Positions 1 through 28,943 of a DNA stretch of 29,069 nt are shown here, one piece after another. The DNA is from a virus (taxonomy: Duplodnaviria; Heunggongvirae; Uroviricota; Caudoviricetes): the IMG/VR virus record IMGVR_UViG_2541047595_000013. One strand, given 5' to 3'. The position numbers were made by a program, and so were the translations under genes. Within the stretch, counting starts at the first letter, position 1; each line of letters opens with the position of its first letter. The notes below the pieces were generated by a model. The model searched no databases and was not told the origin of the DNA. It saw only the letters and a list, made by a program, of their open reading frames with translations.

Positions 1-91
1 AGAAAAAGCTTATTATGCTTCCATCGGAAACGATGATCTGGCAGCCTGAGTTCACAGATAAAACACTCTCCAGGAAACCCGGGGCGGTTCA
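1..91 (+). mobile_element. Partial IS3-family (IS629/IS1203-like) element: right terminus with 3' end of orfB (…EKAYYASIGNDDLAA*, stop at 47-49) and terminal inverted repeat ending …GGTTCA
   Basis: Bases 1-91 match bases 28686-28776 (right end of the complete IS copy) with 2 mismatches; similarity stops exactly at the IS terminus (…ggttca), after which the flanks differ. Confidence 0.85.
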
Positions 92-7552: not shown

Positions 7553-7801
7553 TCAATCAGCATTGAGAAGCAATGCATTATCTATGATGATCTGCTCCCA
7601 TTCTTCGAATGCCCGGTCGCGGACGCCCTGGGGAACACTGTTTGTTTTGAAATCGACGACTGTACGCCATTTCCCGTCCGGACGGTACATGCGCAGAGCT
7701 TTACTTCCCCCTTCCCTGCGCACCTCAACGTTATGCTTGTCAGCAAACTCTTGTAATGCTCGTAGCGTCCCATGCTTTACTGTGTAGTATCGCTTTTTCA
7801 A
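7553..7801 (-). CDS. Hypothetical 82-aa protein; by position and size corresponds to P1 lxc/bof (C1 co-repressor)
   Basis: 82-aa ORF whose start overlaps the stop of the upstream ORF in an ATGA arrangement, downstream of darB. Assigned by synteny and size only. Confidence 0.45.
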   Translation of the reverse strand: MKKRYYTVKHGTLRALQEFADKHNVEVRREGGSKALRMYRPDGKWRTVVDFKTNSVPQGVRDRAFEEWEQIIIDNALLLNAD

Positions 7802-8238
7802 GTTTTCTCTCCAGCCTGTGCCAAGGCTTCAACTTCCAAATCGTAAGACTCAAACTCATAGTCCTGGTCGTCAACTTCTTCAGGCACTGGCAGTAAATGC
7901 CAGGCTGAGTATATCTGACCATTATCAAAACGCTCCTGGCTGTAGAGCGTCGCGGCTATGAGTGTTAGCGCCGGGCGGTCATAACGGTAAATTTTGCGAA
8001 CGTCACGGTCAACGAGACGACCGAAATTACCATAACCGCGCTCCAGTAATAATTTTTTAATTTCCGGCCAGTATGGACCATAGCTGCGGTACAGGCGGGG
8101 ATTTTTCAGTAATCGCCCGCGTAGCCCTGACAGGAAGAAATCAACGTATTCGTCTTCTGTCTTTCCTAACAACGCTGTACGGAGTACCGCCTCAAGATAT
8201 GTTTTATTCGGTTTTATTGTATCAGATAGTGTGGCCAT
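7798..8238 (-). CDS. Hypothetical 146-aa protein; by position corresponds to P1 ulx
   Basis: ORF between darB and the lxc-position gene on the same strand, translationally coupled to the downstream ORF. Confidence 0.45.
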   Translation of the reverse strand: MATLSDTIKPNKTYLEAVLRTALLGKTEDEYVDFFLSGLRGRLLKNPRLYRSYGPYWPEIKKLLLERGYGNFGRLVDRDVRKIYRYDRPALTLIAATLYSQERFDNGQIYSAWHLLPVPEEVDDQDYEFESYDLEVEALAQAGEKT

Positions 8239-8271: not shown

Positions 8272-10908
8272 TTATGCGTATTGTTGGATGACGGCCAGAA
8301 CGTCCGCCACGTTGTGTTTTGTCTCGATAATCCACCAGTTACCTGGGAAGTCGCTGTTCTTCGCCTTCGCTGGCAACCAGCGAGCGCCGAATTTCGCCTT
8401 GATTGCGTCTTTCGCACGGAAAAGAACCCCTTTCATGCCGGAGGCTTCCTGAAGCCCAAATACCTCGCCAGCGGCGAATTTTGGTGCGTACATCATCTTC
8501 AGGTCGGCGGTGGATACGCGATAATTCAGACCAAGAGACTGAGCTATGCTGGTGGCATCACCCTGTATTGATGATAACTCTTCTTGTTTCTCGTTTCTGG
8601 CAGCAATTTCTTCCTCCGTGATGTTGCCAAGGGCCAGGTTTATCCGATCAGCGTCTGCCTGTTTCTCTTCATCGGTGCGCCCGGCAAGTACCGTGTTAAT
8701 TCTGTGCAATATCTCCACATGATTCTTGCGCATGCTGAGCAATTCCGGCGTAACCTCGTTAAGGTCCACCAGCCCAAGGATGGCAAGGTCGGTAAACATT
8801 GATACCAGGTTGTAGGTCATGCGATAGCTGAGTTGCCCATAGGCTGATGGCAACTGCACCGCATCCATTTTATAGGCATCCATAAATTTAGAGCCGTCGT
8901 TTACGACATCCGCAATTGCCGGTGTGATTTTCCCTGTGGTGGCGGCCTCCCTGATTGCTGTTACCCACGATTGAGTCAGCGCGGCGACTGCATGATTCAG
9001 ATTGGCTTTCCGTTCTGCTGCAATGCGCGCGCTTGCTGCGTCCATTGTCTGCTTGATCTCGTCTTTATTGCTGTAAATGCCAATGGTGCCAAACTGTGCT
9101 GTGGTGATCTCATAATCTGACGCCCGGAACTCATTGGTACCGAAAATGGCATTGGTGACTTCAAGTTCAGAATCCCCGTTACGAGTAGCCCCCTGGCTTG
9201 TTTTTTCCGGCATTCTGGCGATCGCATCCGCTATTTTCTCCTGAATTGCTTCAGGGGATAGCGTATCTCCGTATGACGCGATTACATCGCCATAATTGGA
9301 GCCAAACAGTTCAACCAGGAATGTTTCTGCCGAACGGATCTGGCGGTTATTCCCTTCCGACATCATACCAAGCACCCATTTTGCAATTGACGACTTCAGC
9401 GCGCTGTCACGGCGATCCGGGTAAACCGCATGCTTCAGTGGGTCCGTATAGGTACCAACAAAATCAATGCTATAGCCTGACTCTGTAGTCTGAACGCCGT
9501 ACGAGTCAGTTATTTTGATCATGCCGCGCTGCTGGAAACGGTAGAAATCGTCACAGGAAATGATGTCGTTAATCCCGGCGATGGAGACGCCACCACTGAT
9601 TTTCTGCATAACAGCATCTTCATCGGGAGTTACATCCACCTGTTTATCCAGCGTCTTCACATCCCAGTTACCCGATTTGGTGCCTTTGAAGGTAAAGATG
9701 ATCTCCACGTCTGCGCGCTGGCTGTCGAAGTCCAGCGACTTAATGCGAACGATATCACCGGCATAATCGTAGTATTGGCCTACACGCCATGAGCGATCGC
9801 CGATAACAAGGAACTCACTCGCATGGTTTACCAGGTCAGGATCAACATCCAGAATGCCTTTATTTAATGCATCCTCCACCAGCGGGCGCAGGCGTTTGAT
9901 ATCCGTCGCGGCCTTCTGAGTACGGTTCAATAATTTCTCATAGCGGGAGATGGCTTGAGAGATATTAGCCTTGCGCTGAATGGCGCTTTTCAACGACGCG
10001 CGATACTGTGCTAACAACATACGGTCTGTGTGATGGACACTCCCCCAGCGTGCCTTCCAGTCTGCGTTATCCGCTGCCTTGGCCATTGCCGCCTGTTTGA
10101 ATTTAGCTACCTCGGCGGTGGTCTTTTCAAGTTCCGCTTTGCTTCGCTCCAATTCAGCGGTAAGTACCTCCACATCCTCACCAGCTGCGTGCTGCGCCTT
10201 GATGTAGTTCTGAAGGTCGATAGTAGCCTGTTCTTTCTGGCGAGCGCGTTTCGCAGCTTTCGCCTTATCCATTTGAACCTGCATCATTGCCAGACGTTCG
10301 CCGTCATCCTTCGCGGTATACATCTGCATTTCGATCATATCGTTGGCGTCGGCGTTCTCCATTTCTGACTTATCTGAACGGAGGATATCGGAGATCCAGC
10401 CTGCTTTACGCTTCAGCGTCTTCAGTCGGTATTCATCGAAAGACCCCTTGCCGCAGTAGTAGTGAACGCGAACGCTTGCACGGTTGGAGCCAACTCGGGC
10501 ACCGCGACCGTTTCGTTGCGCAATACTGGCTGGAGTCCATGGCAACGTCAGATGATGGATGTCAGTCGTTCCTCGATGCAGGTTGATACCCACCTCTGCC
10601 TTTTTGTTGCAGATGATGATCGGAGTCCGGCCCTCCTGGAAGTCGGCTGCAATCTTTTCCAGACCGCCCAACGACATTTCATTTTGCTGCGCGATATAGG
10701 CGTCATACAGAGCCATTTGCTCGTTGTATTTCGCTATCTGTGCATCTGTTGGTTCATCCGGTAACTCTTTCGGCGGTTTAACCGCTTTCAGTTTCTTACC
10801 GGTTTTACCTGCCTCGGCAACCGTCTGAGCATTCAGTATCCCCACCTTTGAAGGTTCAAGGTTAAGAGCATTGCAGATAATGCGCTTGAGCTTCTGGTGC
10901 TGCGTTTT
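8272..10908 (-). CDS. darB: DarB C-terminal portion (helicase C-terminal region), separated from the N-terminal portion by a frameshift
   Basis: Contains helicase motif VI-like TLPWTPASIAQRNGRGARVG. The frame is open upstream of the first ATG to the frameshift point at about 10905-10909; the two portions together give about 2,256 codons, matching the remembered size of P1 DarB (2,255 aa). Confidence 0.8.
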   Translation of the reverse strand, partial: KTQHQKLKRIICNALNLEPSKVGILNAQTVAEAGKTGKKLKAVKPPKELPDEPTDAQIAKYNEQMALYDAYIAQQNEMSLGGLEKIAADFQEGRTPIIICNKKAEVGINLHRGTTDIHHLTLPWTPASIAQRNGRGARVGSNRASVRVHYYCGKGSFDEYRLKTLKRKAGWISDILRSDKSEMENADANDMIEMQMYTAKDDGERLAMMQVQMDKAKAAKRARQKEQATIDLQNYIKAQHAAGEDVEVLTAELERSKAELEKTTAEVAKFKQAAMAKAADNADWKARWGSVHHTDRMLLAQYRASLKSAIQRKANISQAISRYEKLLNRTQKAATDIKRLRPLVEDALNKGILDVDPDLVNHASEFLVIGDRSWRVGQYYDYAGDIVRIKSLDFDSQRADVEIIFTFKGTKSGNWDVKTLDKQVDVTPDEDAVMQKISGGVSIAGINDIISCDDFYRFQQRGMIKITDSYGVQTTESGYSIDFVGTYTDPLKHAVYPDRRDSALKSSIAKWVLGMMSEGNNRQIRSAETFLVELFGSNYGDVIASYGDTLSPEAIQEKIADAIARMPEKTSQGATRNGDSELEVTNAIFGTNEFRASDYEITTAQFGTIGIYSNKDEIKQTMDAASARIAAERKANLNHAVAALTQSWVTAIREAATTGKITPAIADVVNDGSKFMDAYKMDAVQLPSAYGQLSYRMTYNLVSMFTDLAILGLVDLNEVTPELLSMRKNHVEILHRINTVLAGRTDEEKQADADRINLALGNITEEEIAARNEKQEELSSIQGDATSIAQSLGLNYRVSTADLKMMYAPKFAAGEVFGLQEASGMKGVLFRAKDAIKAKFGARWLPAKAKNSDFPGNWWIIETKHNVADVLAVIQQYA

Positions 10909-13900
10909 TCATCGGTGAAGATGATTTGCTTACCTTCCGGGAAAAACTCCTTCAGCGTGGCAATCAGCTTCGCGTATTTGGGCGTAACGGGGTGAGTTAC
11001 GGTCTGTTCGTCAATGCCAAACCTGGCCAGGCGCTTATTCACTTCCTGCTCGAACGCTTCCGGAACCTGCAACTGAATAAACTCGCCCTTATCTATCAGG
11101 GAGTATTGCGATTGCTGCGTGATTGAATCATCACTGTCGTCGTCTTCGCTGGTGGCTTGTTTAGGCAAACTGTCCGCCAGCTGCTGCACCGCATCGGCGT
11201 ACTCCGGCAGGAAACGATAGGTGATCCGGCGATAGTACAGGTCCATGTCAGTACATACGCGGTCCATATCCCTGATTATTGAGAAGATCGGACGGGCTTT
11301 CTCGTGCTCAATCACGCCGTCTTCATTGACCGAGGTCGTTACGCCATTGTTGGCTTTGGCCGCCGCTTCCGCCTGCTGACGCAATTCTTCATACGCCGCC
11401 AGTTGTTCTTCAGTAAGTGGTGCATCCTGCTGGTGTTCGTCCAGCTCCGGGATCTCCACGGTATCCTTAACGTCTTCCGCCGTTTTAAGCGTTACCCAGC
11501 GATGGAATATACCGCGCAGCGCATCAAGGTTTTCAAAGCCCACCAGCGCCATTTTTTCTTCAACTTCACCGCTAATTTTCTGTACCGTTTCCAGCCTGGT
11601 CTTGCCGAAGAATTTAACGAAGTCATCAGGACCGTAGATCCCCATGTTCTGCCAGTATTCCTTCGGCAGAACATGAGAAAGCATGTTGTATGCATCGATC
11701 GGGGTGTTAACGACTGGCGTTGCAGTCAGGAGAACCGGCCCGCGCCCACCATTCTTTTTCATCAGGTACGCGTTTTTAATTGCCATATCTCGCGCCGATT
11801 GCGCCACCGCGCTGGTGGGCAGATAGGCCAGTTGTGACGCTTCGCGACCATTTTTATAGCTATTGCGGTAGTTGTGACCTTCGTCAGCGATCACACTATC
11901 GAAGCCCATATCCTCAAAGTACGGATACTTCTCTGCTTTTTCGGTGCCGGTATCTGAATACTCCGACAATACCCGGCGACGCGCGGCCTCTTTGCGGTGG
12001 GAGTCGGAGTCCATTGCGCTGGCTACGCGTCCGGCGGCAACGAAGTCATAAAGCATATCCTGTGCATGCTCATCTACGGTGTCATCACGTAGCGGAATGC
12101 GGGCGTATTGTTCTTTGGTAAACACGACTGCACGGTAATTTGAGTGCGGGATCGCGTTCATCCGCGCCGTGATAGTGGCTTCATCTGCCAGCTTAAGAGC
12201 ATCGCGCATAACTGGAGTGCCATCAGTACCAAGAACAGGTTTACCGTTCTCATCGAGCACCTGCACCTGGCGAATCTGATCGCCATCCATCAGCACATCA
12301 AGACCGACGAACAGGTAGTTACTGAATGCCTCTTCACTCAGGAATTCTTTTGCTTCGTAATACCAGTTTTCCAGCACTGATTTAGGCACTACATACGCAG
12401 TACGGGTGGAGCGACCGTTCTCATAGTTGAACGCCTCAAGCGCCAGCGCGGTCGTGGTTTTACCCAGCCCGGTGCCGAAGCCCAGGATGCCGCGCCCATC
12501 TTCGGACAGTCGGCGCACCTCGCTATTCTGGTAATCAAATGGCTGGCGCTTACCGCTTAATCCCTTCAACCCAAGCGGATCGCCAGAGTGTTCATACGGG
12601 ATATTGCTATTGAACACATCGTTGTATTTGGCAACCAGCTCATCGTAGCGATCGTGCGTCTTGATCCACTTATTGAACTGGTCCTCAAGCAGTGCCATCT
12701 GCTCGCGGTAGCCGTTCGCCGTCGCGCTATCTTTGCCACCGATACGCGCACCATTGAGATACTTTTCCAGCTGTGCCGGGAACCCGGTCGCGTTTTCACC
12801 TGATTTACGGTCCCACTCGTAGCGAATCTCACCTGTTTCTTTATCCTTGCGCTGGACGACACCGTATCGGTGCCCGACGAACAGACCATCACCACCGTGA
12901 TAGGTGTCAGAAACCATTTCGTCGCCTTCCAGCTGCACTGACTGCACATAGCGCAGATCCGGATAGCCGTTTTCCTGCAAAAATTCCAGAATGACGGAAC
13001 GGTCGAACCAACGGCTATTGAGCTTAAACCGGATATTCTCTGCTGGCGTCTTGATGCGCTTCTCTTCGATAGCTGCCAGCTGATTAAGGACGTTGTTCTT
13101 TACTGGACCGTCGGGGAGTGTGGCAAGGAATTCCTGTTTTGGTGCCACTATCTCGTTAATGTCGCCGCTGGTGGCGCGGGCGAACGGAAAAATCCCGCCA
13201 TACGGTGAAACCGCAATGCCAGGGGTGCTGGCCAATAAATTAAGCAACTCGTCATCACTGGCTGGCAGTTCGCCGGTAAACGCAAGGCGGAAATCATCGA
13301 GCTGGATTGGATCGCGAGTGAGATCACTGTAGAGATAACGCAGGGTGTCCTGATAGCTGGTGGAGTCATAACTGGCGCTGGAATCATGCGTAACCAGTTT
13401 TCCTGTCAGCTCGTCAGAAATAGTGCCATCCAGCTTAATTGCACCACGGAAAGCAAACCAGGCGCGCGCACCGCTCCCCGATAATTTCGCTATCGGACCG
13501 CGACCGGGGTTACCAAAACGGTCAATCTCTGCCTGCAAACGGGATACCAGAGAAAGGCGCTGCTGTTCGATTTGTTCAGCACTATGCCCGGCGGCCTTCA
13601 TGTCCTGATATTCAATTAACATCCGGCCAATCATCGCCCCGCGATACAAGCGTTCACGGTATTTTTCAGGCTGGCTGTTAATCCAGTCCACCAGCTGCAC
13701 CATATCGTCGCTGATTGATGTGGTGTATTTATCGCGGACATTTGCCATCTGGGTAAATGTCATACCGAGACGGCCTTCTGTTGTAGTCAGGTTACGCTGA
13801 AGAGCCTCCCAGCTGTCCGCGCCATAACTGGCAACATCAATCTTCAGCTCCTTCCCTGCATCAGATTCAATCCAGCGACCACCAGCATATTTTTGCCATA

Positions 13901-15038
13901 CGCCATTAATCAGGCGCATTTCCCCTTCATCAACAACGTCTGCGGTCGGTGACGGTTCAGCCATATTGAGCAAAGACCAGTCGATACGACTTTCGAAACG
14001 ATGAATCAGCTTCGCTTTAAGAGCCTGGTTATCAATCTGCCCGTCGGCACGAACCTCAATACGCCCCTGGAATCCCTTCTCCTGGGTGCCATGAACAAAC
14101 CGGCGACCGTCCTTTTCAAACCACTTGCCAGAAATAAACGTTGGCCAAAGCACATTTGCCGATTCGAGAGTGCTTTCATCCACCAGGGGGATTTTCTCAG
14201 CCATCTCTGCCGGATGTTTGCGCATCAGCACCACATCTACGACCGTACTGGTCCCGTTAGCGTCAAAAGTACCGGTAGGCAAGCGGTGGGCACCAAGAAA
14301 TTCAGCTTTCCGTGATAGGCGCAGGCGTAACCGCTTCATGTTTGAACCTGAAACAATGGACGGCGGCACAATCACGCACATGAATCCGCCTGGCTTTATC
14401 TTGTCCAGCATGCGGAGCATGAAGTAAGAACCCATGTCCGTTTCTTCTGCGTAAGGCTTATCGATGTTGCGTGTGTTATCACGACCACCGAACGGAACGT
14501 TACCCACAACATGGTCGAATGAATCGTTAGGCGTGCTTACAGCCAGTTGTTCGAACGGAGAAATCTGTACGCTGTCTTCCGGGTGCAACAGCTGGTTTAT
14601 ACGACCGGAAACACTGCTGATCTCAGTCGCGGTCATCACCGTACCAACCGGTTTTGTCTCATTAAAAACGCCGGTTCCCGCCGATGGTTCCAGAGTGTTA
14701 CCTACGTCCGCGCCGTAGAGCTTCATGATCTCCCAGACACCTTCAGCGATCGGCTTTGGTGTGTAATATTCGGAGACGGACCCGCCAATGCCGCCTTCGC
14801 CGGTGTACCCAGCCAGGATCTGGCGCTGTTCATCTGTCAGTGTCGCGCCGTCCACCAGCGAATTAAGCAAATCTATCGCCTTCTGATTCGCCTCCCGGCG
14901 TAGTCGGTCATAGCTTTTGCCTTCCACCTTTTCCACGCCGTATCTAATCGGCGCTCGGTGAGATGTTATTGCCCTAATGTATTTCAATATTTCGCTGACA
15001 CTTGAACAGCGAAACACCCCCATAGATAGCTTGTTCAT
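10833..15038 (-). CDS. darB: DarB N-terminal portion (N6-adenine methyltransferase-like domain plus helicase N-terminal motifs)
   Basis: SAM-binding-like LEPSAGTGVF and motif-IV-like GNVPFGG; helicase motif I GFGTGLGKTTTALAL and motif II DEGHNY. The last 23 codons (RSTRSSSALSAMLLTLNLQRWGY*) are out-of-frame read-through after a 1-bp loss in an A5 run. Confidence 0.8.
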   Translation of the reverse strand: MNKLSMGVFRCSSVSEILKYIRAITSHRAPIRYGVEKVEGKSYDRLRREANQKAIDLLNSLVDGATLTDEQRQILAGYTGEGGIGGSVSEYYTPKPIAEGVWEIMKLYGADVGNTLEPSAGTGVFNETKPVGTVMTATEISSVSGRINQLLHPEDSVQISPFEQLAVSTPNDSFDHVVGNVPFGGRDNTRNIDKPYAEETDMGSYFMLRMLDKIKPGGFMCVIVPPSIVSGSNMKRLRLRLSRKAEFLGAHRLPTGTFDANGTSTVVDVVLMRKHPAEMAEKIPLVDESTLESANVLWPTFISGKWFEKDGRRFVHGTQEKGFQGRIEVRADGQIDNQALKAKLIHRFESRIDWSLLNMAEPSPTADVVDEGEMRLINGVWQKYAGGRWIESDAGKELKIDVASYGADSWEALQRNLTTTEGRLGMTFTQMANVRDKYTTSISDDMVQLVDWINSQPEKYRERLYRGAMIGRMLIEYQDMKAAGHSAEQIEQQRLSLVSRLQAEIDRFGNPGRGPIAKLSGSGARAWFAFRGAIKLDGTISDELTGKLVTHDSSASYDSTSYQDTLRYLYSDLTRDPIQLDDFRLAFTGELPASDDELLNLLASTPGIAVSPYGGIFPFARATSGDINEIVAPKQEFLATLPDGPVKNNVLNQLAAIEEKRIKTPAENIRFKLNSRWFDRSVILEFLQENGYPDLRYVQSVQLEGDEMVSDTYHGGDGLFVGHRYGVVQRKDKETGEIRYEWDRKSGENATGFPAQLEKYLNGARIGGKDSATANGYREQMALLEDQFNKWIKTHDRYDELVAKYNDVFNSNIPYEHSGDPLGLKGLSGKRQPFDYQNSEVRRLSEDGRGILGFGTGLGKTTTALALEAFNYENGRSTRTAYVVPKSVLENWYYEAKEFLSEEAFSNYLFVGLDVLMDGDQIRQVQVLDENGKPVLGTDGTPVMRDALKLADEATITARMNAIPHSNYRAVVFTKEQYARIPLRDDTVDEHAQDMLYDFVAAGRVASAMDSDSHRKEAARRRVLSEYSDTGTEKAEKYPYFEDMGFDSVIADEGHNYRNSYKNGREASQLAYLPTSAVAQSARDMAIKNAYLMKKNGGRGPVLLTATPVVNTPIDAYNMLSHVLPKEYWQNMGIYGPDDFVKFFGKTRLETVQKISGEVEEKMALVGFENLDALRGIFHRWVTLKTAEDVKDTVEIPELDEHQQDAPLTEEQLAAYEELRQQAEAAAKANNGVTTSVNEDGVIEHEKARPIFSIIRDMDRVCTDMDLYYRRITYRFLPEYADAVQQLADSLPKQATSEDDDSDDSITQQSQYSLIDKGEFIQLQVPEAFEQEVNKRLARFGIDEQTVTHPVTPKYAKLIATLKEFFPEGKQIIFTDEKRSTRSSSALSAMLLTLNLQRWGY

Positions 15039-15104: not shown

Positions 15105-17835
<2,731 letters not shown>

Positions 17836-17879: not shown

Positions 17880-18092
17880 TTATCGCCTTCGTGCCATATA
17901 TTTGCGCACCGCGCGGCGTGGACAATCTGAAGCGGTTTCTTTCTGCTGCATCAATCTCGCAGCCATGCTCAAAAATGTCAGGCACAGCCGAAGCCCGGCA
18001 TACAATAGCGGTTCCAGTGGCCACGTCTCATTGAGCACATATACCGCCATGAAAATCGAGTCAAAAACTATCGCCGCCAGCGATAACTTCAT
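17880..18092 (-). CDS. Hypothetical small membrane protein (about 70-84 aa, two predicted hydrophobic segments) downstream of lyz
   Basis: ORF 17880-18134; start at the internal ATG (18092) avoids overlap with lyz; hydrophobic stretches LSLAAIVFDSIFMAVYVL and LLYAGLRLCLTFLSMAA. Confidence 0.25.
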   Translation of the reverse strand: MKLSLAAIVFDSIFMAVYVLNETWPLEPLLYAGLRLCLTFLSMAARLMQQKETASDCPRRAVRKYMARRR

Positions 18093-18120: not shown

Positions 18121-18678
18121 TTATTCATTGACAAGCCCCGTCAGGCAAAGCTGGCGTTCTTTTTCACGGCGAATCTTTAAACCTCGCAGGGGCACGCCGT
18201 TACTGTTCACGAAATCAGGGAGATGGTTACACATATTCACCCATTCCCCTTTCTGCGCCCACTTGTGGATGGACGTTTCTACTCGCATGCCTCGCGCTTT
18301 GCTGTAGTAGGTCCGTAAGCTATTGCATCCCATATTGAATGCCGCGCTTGTCATTGCACTGAAGGCATTATCGGGCATGTCTTTGCCCCGGAAGTGCTGA
18401 TTAATACAGCGTTCAGCGATCAGGATATTCTTTTCCCAATCAGCGGCGATTTGCTGGTCGGTTTTTCGCACGCCTGGCGTTACCCCGTGTGTATTACCAA
18501 TCCCGTCAGTCCATACACCCGCCGGGCACATGTATGGGTCACGTCGGCAACCTTCAGCGTTTCCGATAAGCTCAAGCCCCGCCTGGTTGGTTCGCACATT
18601 GCCATTACCCATCACGATGGTAATCATCACCGCGATAGCGCAAATTGCACCGCCTCCTGCGGCTGTTTTTCCCTTCAT
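18121..18678 (-). CDS. lyz: SAR endolysin, T4-lysozyme-like (P1 Lyz, gp17)
   Basis: 186-aa protein from MKGKTAAGGGAICAIAVMITIVMG (N-terminal signal-anchor-release segment) with a lysozyme catalytic region (ELIGNAEGCRRDPY…GVWTDGIGNT); recognised as P1 Lyz. Confidence 0.9.
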   Translation of the reverse strand: MKGKTAAGGGAICAIAVMITIVMGNGNVRTNQAGLELIGNAEGCRRDPYMCPAGVWTDGIGNTHGVTPGVRKTDQQIAADWEKNILIAERCINQHFRGKDMPDNAFSAMTSAAFNMGCNSLRTYYSKARGMRVETSIHKWAQKGEWVNMCNHLPDFVNSNGVPLRGLKIRREKERQLCLTGLVNE

Positions 18679-20350: not shown

Positions 20351-20659
20351 TCAATATACGATCTGGTCTACATGATCACCAAAATCATCGTCGTCGTCCT
20401 CATCGCCACCATCTACTGCTGGCCAATCAACAAACCAGCCAGCGTAAAGATGCAGCGTTCGGAGAACATCACTTGCGGGAGCATCAAGGGTGTTAACGAA
20501 TCCCATATAGCTATTGGGATTTGCTCCAGCTATGGCTTCAGCGATCATGTCCTCGGTAATGTCACCGGAGATAATGCTTAAACGCCCGGAAACTTCTTCA
20601 TTATCATCAAATTCGATAATGGCATCTCCGCCTAATGGCGCTGCGATTTTAATCTGCAT
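20351..20659 (-). CDS. Hypothetical 102-aa protein with poly-acidic C-terminal tail; last gene of the dar operon (P1 hxr position)
   Basis: ORF overlapping the ddrB stop; C-terminus DGGDEDDDDDFGDHVDQIVY. Synteny-based. Confidence 0.45.
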   Translation of the reverse strand: MQIKIAAPLGGDAIIEFDDNEEVSGRLSIISGDITEDMIAEAIAGANPNSYMGFVNTLDAPASDVLRTLHLYAGWFVDWPAVDGGDEDDDDDFGDHVDQIVY

Positions 20660-23636
20660 TATTTAGCTCCTTTGCCACACCTAATAACAGTTCCAGCAAT
20701 CCGTCACCATTCATCAGTGATGCGGCAGCGGCCTCTTTGTCATGATACAACTGAAGAGCCATAGAGAATACTTCCGTTGCTGACGTTTTGGAAATAGTCG
20801 GTGATTTCTGCCGAATTTTCCCGGAATTACTCACTGAGGCTGGCGGGTATACCTTCGCCATATAAATATTACTCAATCGAGATCTGAAGCACCATTCAGG
20901 CTTGCCACGCCCACCGATATTAACGAAAGATGGCTTATCCCCTTCAACATTGGCCTTCAGGAATGACCGGGCTTTCTCTAACAAACCAGGGTTACTGTAC
21001 TCAAGATGATGACCCAGCTCGTGCCACAGTGCACTTGCATTTTCATCGTTCAAATTGACAGCAACAACACCATTAAGATTTGCATATGCCCTTCCCTGGT
21101 GGTGAACCACCTTTGTTAAGGTCGAAATTTTACCGCCGGTCAGGCGATAAATATCAGCAAGTTCCTTGCGCAGGTCTATCCCACCATTCTGTCCAGCGCG
21201 GGCTTCTTCCACTTCTTCCGTGATAAAAGAGTCGGCCCACTCAAGAGCTTTTTCTTCAGATACGGATGAGTTGGCGATCGCACTGTTCATGGCAGATAAC
21301 ACTTTCTCGTGGACCGAACCCATACTTCGCTGATTCATTTGCCAGCGTGTCTGCGGGTTATATGAGAATCGCTTAAGTAGTTGGTCAAGCTGCTCAAGTT
21401 CTTCTTCACTGACATACTTTTTAGCCTCACCAATAATGCCAGGGAGAATATTGCCGTTAGGATTAAACGCTCGCGAAAGGAAGAGTTTCAGCGCCCCCAT
21501 GCCCTCCGATGCTTCAATATCACCAATAACCCGGTTAACAATGGCCGCACTCTTCGGATTAGCATCCGCCAACGCTCTGGCTACGATTTGCAGGGACGAT
21601 ACGACCTCACGCTGCATATCCGTCCTGATCTCATCAATAAACTCTGGCGTTATGCCGTGCTCTTTAAGGATATCCCGGCCTTCCGCCGTTACCCCATCGA
21701 TATCACCGACATGTTTATTAACACGACTTTGCAATGCCTTAAATGCCTTCAGAATTCCACGGGCATCATCCGCTTTACTAACGGCCTTCCTGAATGCTGG
21801 CAAGAAGTCAGAGTTAACCTCATTTTGTTGATCGGCCCACTGAATGGAGGCTTCTTTCATCTCGTCCAGAGTCAGATCACCCAACGCGGTATGGTCTGTG
21901 AATATGAGCGACAACCTCTGAACCATTTCTGCCAATGGTGATGCCGAATGCGCCGCGCTAAGGAATGCTTTCACCCTGGTTGGGCGAATGGAAAACCAGT
22001 CAATAGCTGGTGGCATATCTCCGTTTTTTATCGCCTGCGCTATCTCATCAAAGCCGTCGCGCCCAAGGGAGGATGCGTGATTTAACAATCCGCGAAGTAA
22101 CGAATTGCTGATACCGAATAATCGGCACCATTTATTCACGTCGGCAACAGGCATTCGAACAAAATGCGCAAGCACTTGTACAAGCTGTTCATCCTGGGGA
22201 TCTGTACGGGAAAGCAGCCTGATCAGATGAATAATGTCTTTGATGCCGGATGCCCGATGTAATAGCAAGCTGGTATATGGAGCAACACCGTTGTAACTAC
22301 CGCCGGAAACGGACTCGAAAAGACCGCCGGATATCCCTTGCATGCCTTCGTTTTCCAGTTCCTGAGACACCTGGCGAAGGATATCCTGTAACGACACATC
22401 ACCACCGCCAAACATATCCCCCAGCGCCTGGCCCTGGTGCTGTAACTCATCATTGATACGTTGAGCCATCAATTTAAAGGCGGTGGCCATACGCTTCGCG
22501 CTACGGTTATTCGCGACGATGAACAACGCGAGAGCTTTCACTTCCGGGGCTGTTTCGCTGAACATATCCCCCTGAGCAATAACATCGGTAATATGTTGGC
22601 CTGACTCCTTCGATTGCCTTACCAGGTCTACCGCATCTTTCAATGCCGCCAGCGCCTTTTTATCGAGACTATCCGCTGTCTCAATACCATCAACAATAGT
22701 TGTCACAGCCTGCTTGTGCGCTTCTCCTGATAAAGCCTGCATCTGGACAAAATCATTGGCTGCCGCATTAAGCGCCGTCAGAACATTACGCATATCCGGA
22801 TCAGGTTCTTCTGCAACCATTCTTACCAGGCGCGCATCCTTATATGCCTTGGCAAAGATCGCGTTTTGTATACGGTCAACAAGTTGCCGTGTTGGTCGCC
22901 CATCTTCCGTTACAAGGCCAGCAGCCTGTGTGGCACCAACTTGCGTCATGAATCCGCGAATAAACGCGTCATTACTGCGGCTAAGCAGATCTCCGCTTTC
23001 TGATGGGTTAAACAGCGCCATCATCGCCGGAGTTATGCTGTCGGCATCAACAAAAGCCTTTTCACTGGCTGCCATTTCCTGGAGATCAGAAATATTTGAG
23101 TCCTTGGCAAACTGAACACGGTCAACCTTCGTTAACCGGCGGCGCACCAGTACCGGAGCCGTCATTGATTCAACCTTTTCAGGTCGTATTCCGAATTCGG
23201 TCGCATGTTCAATCAGGTACTCCCGATACCGATCCGCATTACCGTCCTGATAGGCTTTAATGATCCCCATGGTCCTCCCATTACCTGACTCAACGGCATT
23301 GTCCTCACCAATTATCGGCGCGCCATGGCTGGATAAACCGGAATCAGTAAGCTGAGCAGGCCGCAAATCTTTGGATATCTGGTTAACCTGAAGAAGGCTG
23401 GATGCGCGGGTCCGGTCGCGCGGTTGAAGTTCCTGGGGATAGTCAGGATTAATTTTCCCATCCAGAGTATTGGATACCAAAAGAGCTGAGGCATCGACGA
23501 TATCAAACGCTGTTTTTACCTCGTCTCCCTTCGCTGTCACCACATACGAAACCCGCCCATAATCGGGCAGGTTCTTTAGCAGCTCGATCAGCGTTTCTAT
23601 GCTGGTGGCCATTACCACCTGATCGCTTAAGCTCAT
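20649..23636 (-). CDS. ddrB: DdrB-like large dar-operon protein (995 aa) with HExxH metallopeptidase-like motif near the C-terminus
   Basis: Size and position downstream of darA/ddrA; HELGH motif at residues about 872-876 (nt about 21009-21023). Confidence 0.6.
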   Translation of the reverse strand: MSLSDQVVMATSIETLIELLKNLPDYGRVSYVVTAKGDEVKTAFDIVDASALLVSNTLDGKINPDYPQELQPRDRTRASSLLQVNQISKDLRPAQLTDSGLSSHGAPIIGEDNAVESGNGRTMGIIKAYQDGNADRYREYLIEHATEFGIRPEKVESMTAPVLVRRRLTKVDRVQFAKDSNISDLQEMAASEKAFVDADSITPAMMALFNPSESGDLLSRSNDAFIRGFMTQVGATQAAGLVTEDGRPTRQLVDRIQNAIFAKAYKDARLVRMVAEEPDPDMRNVLTALNAAANDFVQMQALSGEAHKQAVTTIVDGIETADSLDKKALAALKDAVDLVRQSKESGQHITDVIAQGDMFSETAPEVKALALFIVANNRSAKRMATAFKLMAQRINDELQHQGQALGDMFGGGDVSLQDILRQVSQELENEGMQGISGGLFESVSGGSYNGVAPYTSLLLHRASGIKDIIHLIRLLSRTDPQDEQLVQVLAHFVRMPVADVNKWCRLFGISNSLLRGLLNHASSLGRDGFDEIAQAIKNGDMPPAIDWFSIRPTRVKAFLSAAHSASPLAEMVQRLSLIFTDHTALGDLTLDEMKEASIQWADQQNEVNSDFLPAFRKAVSKADDARGILKAFKALQSRVNKHVGDIDGVTAEGRDILKEHGITPEFIDEIRTDMQREVVSSLQIVARALADANPKSAAIVNRVIGDIEASEGMGALKLFLSRAFNPNGNILPGIIGEAKKYVSEEELEQLDQLLKRFSYNPQTRWQMNQRSMGSVHEKVLSAMNSAIANSSVSEEKALEWADSFITEEVEEARAGQNGGIDLRKELADIYRLTGGKISTLTKVVHHQGRAYANLNGVVAVNLNDENASALWHELGHHLEYSNPGLLEKARSFLKANVEGDKPSFVNIGGRGKPEWCFRSRLSNIYMAKVYPPASVSNSGKIRQKSPTISKTSATEVFSMALQLYHDKEAAAASLMNGDGLLELLLGVAKELNNAD

Positions 23637-23648
23637 CCCTGTTACGCC

Positions 23649-24014
23649 TTATGCTGCCTCTTTAATGTTGGCGGCTATCCATGCCGCCGTGTGCTGTTTA
23701 ACCTGGTCCAGGTCGATGTATGTGCCAACATATTGATTCAAATCCTGCAAGGTACCGATAAATGCATCGGTGCTCTGATCGACGAATTTATCAGCCAGGA
23801 AATCAGCAACCAGTTTTGGCACACCATCATGTTCCGAAGGTTGTTTTTCCTCGCCACTACCACCGCCGGACGCGCCGTACCCCATCTGTTGCATGATCTG
23901 GTCAATTTCATCGCTGATATCCAGCAACTCCATACCACTCGCGGTAGCCGCTTTGGACATCAGAGCATCCAACTTATCGCTGAGATCCATTAACTCAATA
24001 GCTGATAGTGTCAT
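23649..24014 (-). CDS. DdrA-position protein (121 aa)
   Basis: Small acidic ORF immediately downstream of darA, overlapping its stop. Synteny-based. Confidence 0.5.
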   Translation of the reverse strand: MTLSAIELMDLSDKLDALMSKAATASGMELLDISDEIDQIMQQMGYGASGGGSGEEKQPSEHDGVPKLVADFLADKFVDQSTDAFIGTLQDLNQYVGTYIDLDQVKQHTAAWIAANIKEAA

Positions 24015-25930
24015 GCCGCTACCCCCGCTTTCTGGATTGCTACCAACAGATCAGCCAGGTGGCGAGCTGCGCCGTTAACCAGCTCTTCGTTTTCCTCAAA
24101 ACGTCCGGCAGCCTGAAGGGCTGCAATCGCTTCCCGGACATTGCCCCGGGCGTTACGGATCTCCGCCATGTCAGTGCTTTGCATATCCATCACGTTATTG
24201 AGATATTCAATGGCTTTATTAGCCTCTGCATCTGCTTCGCTAACCGTTTCATCAGGCTGTGCCGGGGCCGGTTCTGGCTGAGTAATCTCACCGACTTCGG
24301 CCTGCAATGCATTGATCATGCTCTGCACCATTTTCTCGGTGCCAGCGCCCCCAGGAAACGCAATATTGGGGAAAGTTTTTTGAAACTGAGTTTTCAGCAT
24401 TACGCGGAACTCGTCTGGTGAGCTGGTGGCCAGCTCCAGAGCTTTTTGTGCATATTTGCCAAACGGACCATTAGTAAGTGTCTTCGCCAGGAAATCGAAA
24501 GAATCCTCGCGAGGCAATAACTTCAGGTCGTACTCACTCATTTGCTGATCAGAAAGCGGGGTATCGTAAGTAGCAATGCCGTAGCGTGCATATTCATAAT
24601 ACGGGTCACCTTCATCAGGGCGCGGCAGAATTGCTTTGTTACCTTCAGGTATTGCGCCAGGGGCCGCCGGACGCATTTGCAGGGCATATCGATATGCACC
24701 TACAGAGACTTCTGGTTCAGGCGAAGAGCTACCGGTATCCTCCGCTGGTTCAGGTTCGACGTTTTCCGGTTTATGTTCTTCTGGTTGGACCAGGTATTCC
24801 GATACATTACCCGCTTTATAGGCTTTAAACAGCTTGCCGATCGCATCTGCCATGTCCACACCCTGTATGGATTTAGCCTTGATCATGTATACGCTGCCAT
24901 CCGGATCGGTTAACTGGATATACCCTTCGCCGTCCCCAATGAATTGCTTCATTGATGCACCATTACTGAGCGTCGCTTCCCCGTCCATATGCATACGATT
25001 TTTGATACTGGCAAGGCGATCCGTCAGCGCGCGAGAGTGCCCACCAGTCATCCCCGCAGGGGCAATGGTATCGCGCCCACCAGTGCGATTGAGCCGATCA
25101 ATCTCCCCCTGCAAACGCTCATTCTCTTCATAAAGAGAATCCGCTTCCGATGCAACAGCGTTAATTTTCTGCTCCAGATCTGCCTTCTGCCCTTCTACCG
25201 CTGCCACCTGATCCGCGAGGTCGCTCATGGCGTCCTCTTTCTGGTCACTGTCAGCCTGTAGTTGGGTTATTTCATCAACAAGGGCTTTTTTCTTCTTCTG
25301 CGCACGCTGGAATTTTGCCGAGTTTTTCTCTGCAAGGTTGGCAAGTTTCATGGTGACCTGCGCCAGCGTCATATCACGTCCACTCATCGGAGCAACGGTG
25401 TGAGTAACGTCTTTTTTATTCAGTAAGAACTGGAAAGCAACCAGCGTATCGCTATTGGTGATCCGGTTTTCCGCTGTCGGGCTATGAAACAGAATGCTGA
25501 TAGTCTGACCATCACTGAGCGGAATAATGGCTGGCAGGACCGGCAGCCCGTTAACGTTACGTGCCCGGCCAATTTCAGCCCCGCCGATCGCGCGTGCACC
25601 GTTCTGGGCCACATCCCCCGTTTTATCACTCCCCGCAGAGATTCCGGTACCATTCAGCTTCTGGTTCAATGCCCGGACAAATGCCTGCATGGTCCGGTGT
25701 AACTGCAAACGAGTAGAACTAATCGCCTCCAGTAAATCCGTAGCACACCAGTGGATTGGCGTGTCATAGAAGAACGTAGCCTCGATTTCCTCCAGGGTGT
25801 TGGATTCCGTCATCAGATAGCGGTCCTCACCGGCCATTAATGCGCGATATTCATCATCAGTCACTGGCGGGGGAAGCACGTCAAGCCCAGGCTTGATCGT
25901 CACCCCTTTATTGATATTGAACTGTTCCAT
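24011..25930 (-). CDS. darA: DarA-like internal head protein precursor (639 aa), antirestriction system component
   Basis: 639-aa ORF, matching the remembered length of P1 DarA; located in an operon with lydA/lydB upstream and ddrA/ddrB downstream; coiled-coil-rich central region. Confidence 0.75.
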   Translation of the reverse strand: MEQFNINKGVTIKPGLDVLPPPVTDDEYRALMAGEDRYLMTESNTLEEIEATFFYDTPIHWCATDLLEAISSTRLQLHRTMQAFVRALNQKLNGTGISAGSDKTGDVAQNGARAIGGAEIGRARNVNGLPVLPAIIPLSDGQTISILFHSPTAENRITNSDTLVAFQFLLNKKDVTHTVAPMSGRDMTLAQVTMKLANLAEKNSAKFQRAQKKKKALVDEITQLQADSDQKEDAMSDLADQVAAVEGQKADLEQKINAVASEADSLYEENERLQGEIDRLNRTGGRDTIAPAGMTGGHSRALTDRLASIKNRMHMDGEATLSNGASMKQFIGDGEGYIQLTDPDGSVYMIKAKSIQGVDMADAIGKLFKAYKAGNVSEYLVQPEEHKPENVEPEPAEDTGSSSPEPEVSVGAYRYALQMRPAAPGAIPEGNKAILPRPDEGDPYYEYARYGIATYDTPLSDQQMSEYDLKLLPREDSFDFLAKTLTNGPFGKYAQKALELATSSPDEFRVMLKTQFQKTFPNIAFPGGAGTEKMVQSMINALQAEVGEITQPEPAPAQPDETVSEADAEANKAIEYLNNVMDMQSTDMAEIRNARGNVREAIAALQAAGRFEENEELVNGAARHLADLLVAIQKAGVAA

Positions 25931-25931
25931 G

Positions 25932-26543
25932 TTAATTTCCTGCTTTCAGTTGCTTAAGACGGCGTTTGAGTTCGCCATTTCGGGCCTTTTCGTTATTGAG
26001 TCGGCCTGTCTCCTTATCCAGCTTCGCCCGCAAATCAGTGATCTGCTGTTGATTGAAAGACACCGAGTTCTGCGCTGATTTATAAGCGGCAACCACCTGA
26101 GCATTCCGCTGTTTTGCCTCTTGCAGGCGCTGAAAGTTGGATTTTACTGCCGGTTTCTTGTCTACCGGATTGGCAACACGTTTCGCTTTGGCGATCAGTG
26201 ATTTCTGGAATTTTGCGGAGTTTTTGCGGGCCGCTTGCCCCATGACGGTACCAAGCGTCTTGATATCCGGCGACTGAGCGTTAGGAATAGCTTTTCCATT
26301 CAGCCTCACAGACGATATATCGCCAGTATCGTTTACCTGTATGGCAAGAATTTGTCCGTCGTTAAGAACCAGCTTTGCGGTTTTAACTTTAACGCCATCT
26401 TTCGTTGTTGCGCGGTTGCTGGAGTCAACCTCAATTACCGTAACACCGGTTTTATTGATCGCCGCGATAAGGGATTTCAGCCCCTTTTCATTAACCTGGT
26501 CAAAATCGACCGTTGCATACTTATTTTTCGTCATCTGACACAT
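25932..26543 (-). CDS. Hdf-position protein (203 aa)
   Basis: ORF between lydB and darA; basic coiled-coil C-terminus. Synteny-based. Confidence 0.5.
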   Translation of the reverse strand: MCQMTKNKYATVDFDQVNEKGLKSLIAAINKTGVTVIEVDSSNRATTKDGVKVKTAKLVLNDGQILAIQVNDTGDISSVRLNGKAIPNAQSPDIKTLGTVMGQAARKNSAKFQKSLIAKAKRVANPVDKKPAVKSNFQRLQEAKQRNAQVVAAYKSAQNSVSFNQQQITDLRAKLDKETGRLNNEKARNGELKRRLKQLKAGN

Positions 26544-27290: not shown

Positions 27291-27520
27291 AAGTTCCCTC
27301 CTACGTTGTCAGGAGGTAATGGTATGCAAAGTAACTTCTCAACCGGTTATGTTGCATAAGAGACTTACCTATTCAACCGACTTTTGGAACCTTCAATAAT
27401 AAGCCTGCTATTGGCGCTGAAAATAAGAACCATGCAGCTCTGAAGGCTTTCATTCATATCCTTATATGAACCGCCCCGGGAATCCTGGAGACTAAACTCC
27501 CTGAGAAAGAGGTAAACAGG

Positions 27521-27847
27521 ATGACTAAAAATACACGTTTTTCCCCCGAGGTCCGTCAACGGGCAGTTCGTATGGTTCTGGAAAGTCAGGGCGAATATGA
27601 CTCACAATGGGCGGCAATTTGTTCCATTGCCCCAAAGATTGGCTGTACACCAGAGACTCTGCGTGTGTGGGTTCGTCAGCATGAGCGGGATACCGGGAGT
27701 GGTGATGGTGGACTCACCACCGCTGAACGTCAGCGTCTGAAAGAGCTGGAACGTGAAAATCGTGAACTGCGCCGCAGTAACGATATCCTTCGCCAGGCTT
27801 CCGCTTATTTTGCGAAGGCGGAGTTCGACCGCCTCTGGAAAAAATAA
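27521..27847 (+). CDS. IS3-family transposase OrfA (helix-turn-helix / leucine-zipper part)
   Basis: 108-aa protein [22 protein letters not shown]… recognised as IS629/IS1203 OrfA; ends in an A6 run overlapping the orfB start. Confidence 0.9.
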
Positions 27848-28734
27848 TGCCGCTGCTGGATAAGCTGCGTGAGCAGTACGGGGTCGGACCGGTATGCAGT
27901 GAACTGCATATTGCCCCGTCAACGTATTACCACTGTCAGCAACAGCGACATCATCCTGATAAACGCAGTGCCCGTGCTCAGCGCGATGACTGGCTGAAGA
28001 GAGAGATACAGCGCGTATACGATGAAAATCATCAGGTGTACGGTGTGCGTAAAGTCTGGCGCCAGTTGTTACGCGAAGGTATCAGGGTGGCCAGATGTAC
28101 AGTGGCGCGCCTCATGGCGGTTATGGGACTTGCCGGTGTTCTCCGGGGTAAAAAGGTCCGTACTACCGTCAGCCGGAAAGCCGTTTCCGCAGGCGACCGC
28201 GTAAACCGTCAGTTCGTGGCAGAACGTCCTGACCAGCTGTGGGTGGCTGATTTTACTTACGTCAGCACATGGCAGGGCTTCGTCTATGTGGCGTTCATCA
28301 TTGATGTGTTTGCCGGATGTATCGTGGGGTGGCGAGTCTCATCGTCTATGGAAACGACATTCGTGCTGGATGCACTGGAGCAGGCGTTGTGGGCCCGTCG
28401 GCCGTCCGGCACAGTCCATCACAGTGATAAAGGTTCTCAGTATGTATCACTGGCCTATACGGAGCGACTAAAAGAAGCAAAACTGCTGGCATCAACAGGG
28501 AGTACAGGTGACTCGTATGACAACGCGATGGCGGAGAGCATCAATGGTCTTTACAAAGCGGAGGTAATACACCGTAAGAGCTGGAAAAACCGTGCAGAAG
28601 TGGAACTGGCCACACTCACGTGGGTGGACTGGTATAACAATCGACGATTGCTGGGAAGGCTGGGTCATATCCCTCCGGCAGAAGCAGAAAAAGCTTATTA
28701 TGCTTCCATCAGAAACGATGATCTGGCAGCCTGA
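27847..28734 (+). CDS. IS3-family transposase OrfB (DDE integrase catalytic domain)
   Basis: 295-aa protein with an rve-type DDE core (WVADFTYV … HSDKGSQY … ESINGLYKAE); overlaps orfA in the -1 frame, as in IS3-family programmed frameshifting. Confidence 0.9.
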   Translation: MPLLDKLREQYGVGPVCSELHIAPSTYYHCQQQRHHPDKRSARAQRDDWLKREIQRVYDENHQVYGVRKVWRQLLREGIRVARCTVARLMAVMGLAGVLRGKKVRTTVSRKAVSAGDRVNRQFVAERPDQLWVADFTYVSTWQGFVYVAFIIDVFAGCIVGWRVSSSMETTFVLDALEQALWARRPSGTVHHSDKGSQYVSLAYTERLKEAKLLASTGSTGDSYDNAMAESINGLYKAEVIHRKSWKNRAEVELATLTWVDWYNNRRLLGRLGHIPPAEAEKAYYASIRNDDLAA

Positions 28735-28736
28735 GT

Positions 28737-28943
28737 TCACAGATAAAACACTCTCCAGGAAAACCGGGGCGGTTCATATAATTCCGCGAGATACATGCCA
28801 ATAAAGCCAGCAAGTACGGCGGAAATACATTCGTCCAGCAATTTCTTGCATGAAGACTCGTAACGGTTTTCACATAGCCCACTCAAATACGAATACACCC
28901 CACCAAGAAGGGATAACATCACGATATGTACATAAAATGTCAT
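28737..28943 (-). pseudogene. Small hydrophobic ORF truncated by the IS insertion (native about 55 codons, then about 13 codons read from the IS terminus)
   Basis: ORF starts at 28943 and runs into the IS right end (28776), so its 3' end is IS-derived; predicted membrane segment (HIVMLSLLGGVYSYL; AVLAGFIGMYLA). Confidence 0.35.

Follow-up and report, generated by a model that had tools for sequence, protein, structure and literature searches.

The window, a stretch of 29,069 nt, carries a copy of the phage P1 gene darB that has lost one base from a short homopolymer (A6 to A5 at codon 1377/1378), and we estimate a probability of roughly 80% that this deletion is genuine and is restricted to the P1-like plasmid prophage of E. 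coli K5 Bi 8337-41 (ATCC 23506). The window corresponds to contig CAPK01000115.1 of E. coli O10:K5:H4 ATCC 23506. The locus and its two open reading frames were placed as follows:

8272-15038, minus strand: whole darB locus (ATG 15038-15036, TAA 8274-8272)
10833-15038, minus strand: 5' ORF of 1401 aa, made up of 1,378 native DarB residues and 23 out-of-frame residues (TGA 10835-10833)
10905-10909, minus strand: mutation site, A5 on the coding strand (plus-strand T5), A6 in relatives
8272-10845, minus strand: 3' ORF of 857 aa, listed mechanically from GTG 10845 and covering native DarB residues ~1399-2255

Direct reading of the coding strand gave ...ATCTTCACCGATGAAAAACGCAGCACC... across the site and placed the plus-strand T5 exactly at 10905-10909, the position named in the original prediction. 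The codons at the site are GAA AAA / CGC in the window compared to GAA AAA ACG in relatives. The 5' ORF runs on out of frame for 23 residues (RSTRSSSALSAMLLTLNLQRWGY, then stop) after its 1,378 native ones, the tail length that had been predicted, and it overlaps the 3' ORF by 13 nt. Insertion of one A in silico produced a 6,768-nt ORF of 2,255 aa plus stop with no further internal stop, reading ...IIFTDEK-TQHQKLKRIICNALNLEPSKVGI... across the site, in agreement with the expected IIFTDEK junction and about 2,256 codons. The difference between A5 and A6 was the sole gap in 6.9-kb alignments to P1 (NC_005856.1), pMTY1887 (NZ_CP128965.1) and SJ46 (KU760857.1), and also the sole darB gap against a fourth relative (NZ_CP012491.1); these single-gap alignments bear out the proposal of a single darB gene divided into two ORFs by the loss of one base from a homopolymer. 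Where the window has A5, the run is A6 in P1, P7, SJ46 and every close plasmid. The single uninterrupted frame of ~2,255 codons expected of DarB is thus divided by the frameshift at 10905-10909 into products of 1401 and 857 aa, and judged by an intact frame the window's darB is a pseudogene by descent and not a functional member of the family.

The gene measures 6,767 nt in the window compared to 6,768 nt in every intact relative, and its nucleotide identity to annotated darB or N-6 DNA methylase genes of P1, P7 and P1-like plasmids was 98.0-99.3% with one gap. It keeps its place between prt, which is the portal gene, and ulx, so that length (6.9 kb), identity (98-99.3%) and flanking order all indicate orthology with DarB. 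A tblastn search with the DarB of an intact relative returned a match in two parts, aa 1-1378 and aa 1378-2255. All 23 neighbouring genes are intact, with 99.8-100% identity to their counterparts in the nearest P1-like plasmid. A chance assignment can be dismissed because of this identity, the retained prt/ulx position and the near-identical neighbours. On this comparison the locus is the known P1 gene darB, an ordinary lineage-specific pseudogene and not a new feature.

Homopolymers are known to be prone to undercalling by one base, and the missing base could be a sequencing or assembly error in a strain that truly has A6 and an intact darB, an option which the original prediction had listed. 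The phage record ON470615.2 likewise reads A5 here, and its darB has deletions in three other homopolymers, a pattern showing that the darB A-run can be miscalled in a noisy assembly. However, Illumina HiSeq data have a low indel error at runs of 5-6 nt, and it was on this platform that the window was sequenced (HiSeq 2000, ~38x coverage, Velvet assembly; PMC3593327). Two further data sets have the identical A5: contig UGDF01000005.1 (96.8 kb, GCA_900449635.1) matches the window at 100% identity over 14.6 kb, and a Logan assembly of SRR254203 does so over 11.2 kb, the A5 included in both. This agreement is one of three assemblies, strong but indirect evidence at the assembly level, and SRR254203 may not be independent of the other two; none of the three has the six A expected of an intact gene in this strain. 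Against the nearest plasmid the window aligned over 27.4 kb at 99.5% identity, and the only indels were the 1-bp loss in darB and one of 6 bp. That stretch contains 110 homopolymers of at least 5 bases, and the other 109, with runs of up to 9, showed no 1-bp indel. Since two further data sets agree and no second 1-bp indel was present in 27.4 kb, A5 is read as a real mutation, and an error at this run, which we consider extremely unlikely, is essentially excluded.

An 80-mer with A5 had no identical match in 550 plasmid, 571 E. coli complete-genome and 18 phage records, and the best matches listed for the site in all three record types spanned 81 nt, i.e., A6. A pattern scan with a 22-mer spanning the A5 site found no match in IMG/VR, GTDB species representatives or JGI metagenomes. 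Among the cleanly sequenced records examined, the A5 allele is confined to the lineage of the E. coli K5 ATCC 23506 plasmid. The repaired 2,255-aa protein has exact matches on 29 contigs, under the name 'N-6 DNA methylase [Escherichia coli]'. As the repaired protein equals intact DarB on 29 other contigs and there is no second lesion, the frameshift appears to be recent and to have arisen in a single step. Six differences were private to the window's darB relative to four references (three silent, three replacement). Accumulated decay was considered as an account of these differences and rejected, all three replacements being shared with the intact allele elsewhere; the exact database match of the repaired protein likewise leaves no sign of decay after the frameshift.

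Pfam domains were located in the two products at these positions, all encoded on the minus strand:

aa 90-291 of the 5' ORF: N6_Mtase
aa 166-244 of the 5' ORF: Eco57I
aa 833-904 of the 5' ORF: ResIII
aa 849-910 of the 5' ORF: SNF2-rel_dom
aa 57-119 of the 3' ORF, equal to aa 1455-1517 of the intact protein: Helicase_C

The methyltransferase and both lobes of the SNF2-type SF2 helicase are therefore all present but divided between the two ORFs, with the break falling between the two RecA-like lobes. This matches the layout first proposed, in which the methyltransferase and the first helicase part are N-terminal and the second helicase part C-terminal. Residues 1-30 of the 5' ORF are identical to those of P1 DarB, and the first 30 DarB residues constitute the capsid-targeting sequence (PMC9024508). 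Protection against EcoK/EcoB is given in cis by virion-borne DarB, whose methylase-helicase pair has been described as a functional unit.

The 3' ORF had been said to lack a start context of its own, and no credible translation start was found within its first ~100 codons. Six in-frame start codons lie within the first 101 codons, and their Shine-Dalgarno pairing energies were +0.4, -1.8, +1.1, +0.4, -3.2 and +0.7 kcal/mol, so that the best pairing was no better than -3.2 kcal/mol. The 5' ORF stop and GTG 10845 are separated by only 10 nt, and bacterial ribosomes are known to terminate and reinitiate across such distances; split SF2 helicases, moreover, sometimes complement each other. Ribosomes might then reinitiate at GTG 10845 after the TGA at 10835-10833 and yield two polypeptides that together form an active methylase-helicase. 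We regard this as most improbable: GTG 10845 has no Shine-Dalgarno sequence (+0.4 kcal/mol), 21 native residues (1379-1399) would be lost and 23 foreign ones gained, and the split architecture is found in no relative. The 3' fragment would also have no N-terminal capsid-targeting sequence, which is needed for packaging (PMC9024508), and DarB acts only in cis from the virion.

A slippage-prone site was the remaining option in the original prediction. Such a site could act through functional recoding, with -1 ribosomal or transcriptional slippage yielding full-length DarB, or as a phase-variable switch of darB. A -1 shift on GAA-AAA-C would restore the exact wild type (...DEK-TQHQ...), and the downstream frame opens only at the A-run, being closed immediately before it by a TGA. 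In E. coli, ribosomes are known to shift frame on lysine codons within A-runs, where tRNA-Lys can re-pair from AAA to AAA. However, the zero frame GAU GAA AAA CGC does not contain an X XXY YYZ heptamer and permits only single-tRNA re-pairing (A-AAA). The 80 nt downstream had a predicted fold of -16.7 kcal/mol compared to a shuffle mean of -15.2 (z = -0.49), and there was no suitably placed Shine-Dalgarno-like stimulator upstream, the sole GGAAGG-like element lying ~22 nt upstream of the run. Nor is the two-ORF arrangement conserved; clean relatives all have A6 and a single ORF, and none shares two ORFs with independent starts. Phase variation is opposed by the uniform run length in >1,100 related records, in which one error-laden phage record was the only exception. 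A contingency locus has a long, length-polymorphic tract and the tract in relatives is 6 nt; a run of five or six A is short both for such a tract and for transcription to slip efficiently. A programmed or slippage-prone site is thus not supported, no clean relative having two ORFs and no stimulatory structure being present, and recoding or switching seems very unlikely.

A small amount of full-length DarB could arise by -1 slippage on GAA-AAA-C. There is a slim chance that the A5 allele is leaky through a low level of such slippage, or that it is re-purposed, the 1,401-aa fragment being packaged and retaining a helicase-independent activity. If true, a leaky or re-purposed A5 allele would be a natural separation-of-function allele of DarB.

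The option of a real inactivating mutation, the first named in the original prediction, is supported by the same A5 in the three assemblies, with the loss of DarB function inferred from the domain layout. The deletion would most likely have originated when replication slipped, in the ordinary way, on a short homopolymer. A plasmid living mainly as a prophage is probably under relaxed selection, although this is a plausible background and not a demonstrated cause, because darB shows no sign of further decay. The region upstream of the gene was also compared with P1:

15039-15113, minus strand: sequence upstream of darB, equivalent to the P1 promoter region annotated as PdarB / LPpro

It is identical to P1 at 74 of 75 nt, a conservation which suggests that the broken darB is probably still transcribed. 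Because promoter, ribosome-binding region and N-terminal targeting are unchanged, the 1,401-aa fragment is probably made and possibly packaged. Translation stops 23 codons past the frameshift, between the helicase lobes, and the predicted product would consist of the methyltransferase and half a helicase. The 3' 857 codons have neither a ribosome-binding site nor a capsid-targeting signal, so that the ATPase motor could not be completed in the virion, and DarB-dependent protection of injected DNA against type I restriction of the EcoKI/EcoBI type would consequently be lost.

Other genes of the Dar system and the downstream neighbour were located as follows, the names being taken from the P1 annotation:

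7798-8238, minus strand: ulx, 146 aa, intact, 100% identical to the copy in the nearest plasmid
20649-23636, minus strand: ddrB, intact
23649-24014, minus strand: ddrA, intact
24011-25930, minus strand: darA, intact
25932-26543, minus strand: hdf, intact

The ulx product is the downstream partner that helps DarB to enter the capsid (PMC9024508, table 1). The genes ddrB, ddrA, darA and hdf (20649-26543) were each 99.8-100% identical over their full length and had no stops. As these genes are intact, the damage to the system is limited to the DarB arm, and the DarA/DdrA arm would stay intact. The second assembly has an IS element in lydC, and the chimeric lydC::IS ORF matched only the window's own contig. 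Look-ups with LydA and DarA matched other plasmids only.

The locus should be annotated as a single pseudogene, darB, in place of two entries named 'defense against restriction protein' and 'hypothetical protein', and beyond this correction the broken gene is of little significance. E. coli K5 (ATCC 23506) is a widely used heparosan-producing strain, and sensitivity to EcoKI/EcoBI-type restriction is predicted for any phage particles from its P1-like plasmid. The A5 allele is a natural truncation in which the second helicase lobe is gone and the methyltransferase and capsid-targeting signal are kept, and it could be a small resource for dissecting the cooperation of the DarB halves.

Among known copies, P1 DarB (YP_006479.1; NC_005856.1 10469-17236) shares 98.0% nucleotide identity with the window over 6.9 kb, the same prt-ulx position and the same domain order (methyltransferase, SNF2, Helicase_C), with 1,368 of the first 1,378 residues identical. 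Unlike P1 darB, the window's copy has one A missing at codon 1377/1378, which cuts the 2,255-codon ORF. An intact E. coli DarB (UPI000BE80C9C, e.g., EHX5494482.1), present on 29 contigs, equals the repaired window protein at all 2,255 residues. The darB of the Salmonella phage-plasmid SJ46 (KU760857.1) is also broken in the helicase region and annotated as two CDS, but its lesion is different and independent: position 1499 is a nonsense codon, and the A-run that is shortened in the window has its full six bases. Phage vB_EcoM-673R5 (ON470615.2) shares the A5 and the 13-nt ORF overlap with the window but differs in its local haplotype (ACGGACGAAAAACG), and its three further homopolymer deletions in darB and fragmented portal gene are typical of a noisy assembly. 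Among plasmid matches sampled at even intervals, several darB copies were frameshifted, unannotated or truncated, the truncated ones retaining aa 926-2255, 1549-2255 or 1651-2255. Broken darB copies appear from this sample to be common among relatives of this plasmid, and the A5 allele is a further instance of a gene that P1-like plasmids have lost repeatedly.

The P1 anti-restriction gene darB lies on the minus strand of the window as two large ORFs that overlap by 13 nt:

10833..15038, minus strand, 5' ORF of darB, 1401 aa
8272..10845, minus strand, 3' ORF of darB, 857 aa

The P1 counterpart, in contrast, is a single 6,768-nt CDS between prt and ulx, annotated as darB ('defense against restriction; putative DNA adenine methyltransferase and helicase'). 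A 6.9-kb query that spans the two ORFs displayed 97.8-98.9% identity to darB of P1, P7, RCS47, SJ46 and other punaviruses and matched hundreds of P1-like plasmids with up to 99.3% identity. The original prediction read the two ORFs as one DarB-like gene with a 1-bp loss in a homopolymer, and the proposed comparison with darB of P1 and P1-like phages bore this out. When aligned to P1, pMTY1887 and SJ46, the window displayed exactly one gap each time, having A5 where the reference has A6, and likewise one gap in darB against the overall nearest plasmid (NZ_CP012491.1). The coding strand at the site reads ...ATCTTCACCGATGAAAAACGCAGCACCAG...; the ORF listing and direct reading confirmed every descriptive detail, including the plus-strand T5 at 10905-10909. 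Insertion of one A generated a fully open frame of 2,255 codons without a further stop, close to the anticipated size of about 2,256 codons.

The window corresponds to the whole of contig CAPK01000115.1 (29,069 bp) in GCA_000333175.1, the E. coli O10:K5:H4 ATCC 23506 (Bi 8337-41) draft genome, for which Illumina HiSeq 2000 reads at ~38x were assembled by Velvet with k=93 (PMC3593327). UGDF01000005.1, a 96.8-kb contig of a second assembly (GCA_900449635.1), also encodes identical 1401-aa and 857-aa products, and the Logan contig of run SRR254203 contained the 857-aa product with the 3' part of the 5' ORF ahead of it. Identity to the window was 100% over 14.6 kb and 11.2 kb, respectively, with GATGAAAAACGCAG included in both. 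In the second assembly, pacA is intact at the place where an IS end stands in the window, and the window's chimeric lydC::IS ORF is absent; this assembly is therefore no copy of the window's. Over 27.4 kb, the window and its nearest relative differed by 129 mismatches and two indels, the A5 site and a 6-bp indel at 17890, although this stretch contains 110 homopolymers of at least 5 bases (longest runs 9). A homopolymer sequencing error had been one of three explanations offered. The A-run at this site can be undercalled, as is seen in phage vB_EcoM-673R5 (ON470615.2), the one other record with A5, which has a different local haplotype. Its darB has four single-base homopolymer deletions (1759, 5039, 6755, 6818), the A5 site among them, and its portal gene is fragmented, a pattern that indicates a noisy assembly and suggests uncorrected long-read errors. 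For the window, a sequencing artefact is a very unlikely cause, because A5 recurs in two further contigs, making three assemblies, indels are few, and none of the 23 other annotated genes is truncated.

The other indel is a deletion of CGTCTG relative to NZ_CP012491.1, located in the intergenic stretch that separates the head-processing protease gene, which ends at 17835, from lyz (18121-18678). darB was the most divergent gene of the window, with 77 of the 129 mismatches (8272-15038). Compared to the pMTY1887 allele it displayed 2 differences in the first ~4.5 kb and 45 in the last ~2.3 kb, a distribution that marks it as a recombination mosaic.

A complete 1,309-bp IS3-family insertion sequence (27468-28776; ends TGAACCGCCCCGG...CCGGGGCGGTTCA), flanked by a TATA-like target duplication, interrupts a lydC-like holin gene upstream of lydA:

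27521-27847, ORF of the insertion sequence, 108 aa
27847-28734, ORF of the insertion sequence, 295 aa

The chimeric lydC::IS ORF (28737-28943, minus strand) was found only in the window contig. Window positions 1-91 contain the final 91 nt of a further IS of this type, which differ from the copy in lydC at 2 positions. Their junction with P1-like sequence lies within the pacA 3' end, 25 nt ahead of where pacB starts; pacA encodes 397 aa in UGDF01000005.1. This junction reflects either stocks differing by IS insertions, a subpopulation, or a Velvet contig end of k-1 (92 nt).

None of 550 plasmid records, 571 records of 568 complete E. coli genomes and 18 phage records was identical to an 80-nt query centred on the A5 site; the best matches were all 81 nt long with A6, and an exact 22-mer across the site was not found in IMG/VR, GTDB species representatives or JGI metagenomes. 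The repaired protein (one A restored) occurred with every residue the same on 29 contigs in a public protein collection, as 'N-6 DNA methylase [Escherichia coli]'. The window allele is therefore one step from a circulating intact allele, the protein being otherwise unchanged since, and the mosaic is older than the frameshift. By these comparisons, the frameshift is recent and restricted to this strain lineage.

A slippage-prone site had also been offered. If tRNA-Lys slipped by -1 on GAA-AAA-C, the exact wild-type DarB sequence would be regained at full length; the A-run is also exactly where the downstream frame becomes open. However, no tandem slippery heptamer is present there, the 80 nt downstream do not fold more stably than shuffled sequences (z = -0.49), and the two-frame arrangement is absent from all clean relatives; anything beyond trace read-through is unlikely. 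The sum of evidence indicates that the split is real and, among the three explanations, favours a genuine inactivating mutation.

For this mutation, Pfam placed the domains as the original prediction had divided them:

aa 90-291, 5' ORF, N6-adenine methyltransferase
aa 833-910, 5' ORF, first helicase lobe (SNF2-related/ResIII)
aa 1455-1517 of intact DarB (aa 57-119 of the 3' ORF), Helicase_C

The break at codon 1378 thus separates the motor's two RecA-like lobes. The first 30 residues of DarB are enough to direct a protein to the P1 capsid (PMC9024508). Because these residues are the same as in P1 and the upstream region is conserved (74/75 nt), cells probably make the 1,401-aa fragment, which may also be packaged. 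This signal is absent from the 3' fragment, and no Shine-Dalgarno was found before its first six in-frame starts (best -3.2 kcal/mol), in agreement with the suggestion that it has no start context of its own. Ribosome reinitiation at GTG 10845 to make the 3' product is conceivable but unsupported, and that product could not enter the capsid. Carried in the virion, DarB counters EcoK/EcoB-type restriction in cis, and its methylase-helicase pair is viewed as a functional unit (PMC5512222, PMC12810830, PMC12707154). From the domain layout we infer that DarB function is lost; the other members of the Dar system (ulx, ddrB, ddrA, darA, hdf) are intact, so DarA/DdrA-dependent functions should be retained.

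Among 60 plasmid matches to P1 DarB sampled at even spacing, one full-length copy was split in two pieces and unannotated, and two further full-length copies were unannotated or had a product name for a partial domain only. In about a tenth of the rows, darB was truncated to aa 926-2255; these seven, a recurrent class on larger E. coli plasmids (77-160 kb), lack the methyltransferase and are annotated as 'helicase-related protein' (5/7), IS1 transposase (1/7) or hypothetical protein (1/7). That all of them break at aa 926 suggests one deletion in an ancestor, or an IS-mediated event. Further truncated copies begin at aa 1549, 1651 or 1751, and the 90% protein cluster of DarB has many shorter members. 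An independent lesion affects darB of SJ46 (KU760857.1), where codon 1499 is a nonsense codon and the annotation shows two genes. Loss of darB thus recurs in P1-like plasmids, and the window adds a lesion of a common kind, in no way novel, in a well characterised gene.
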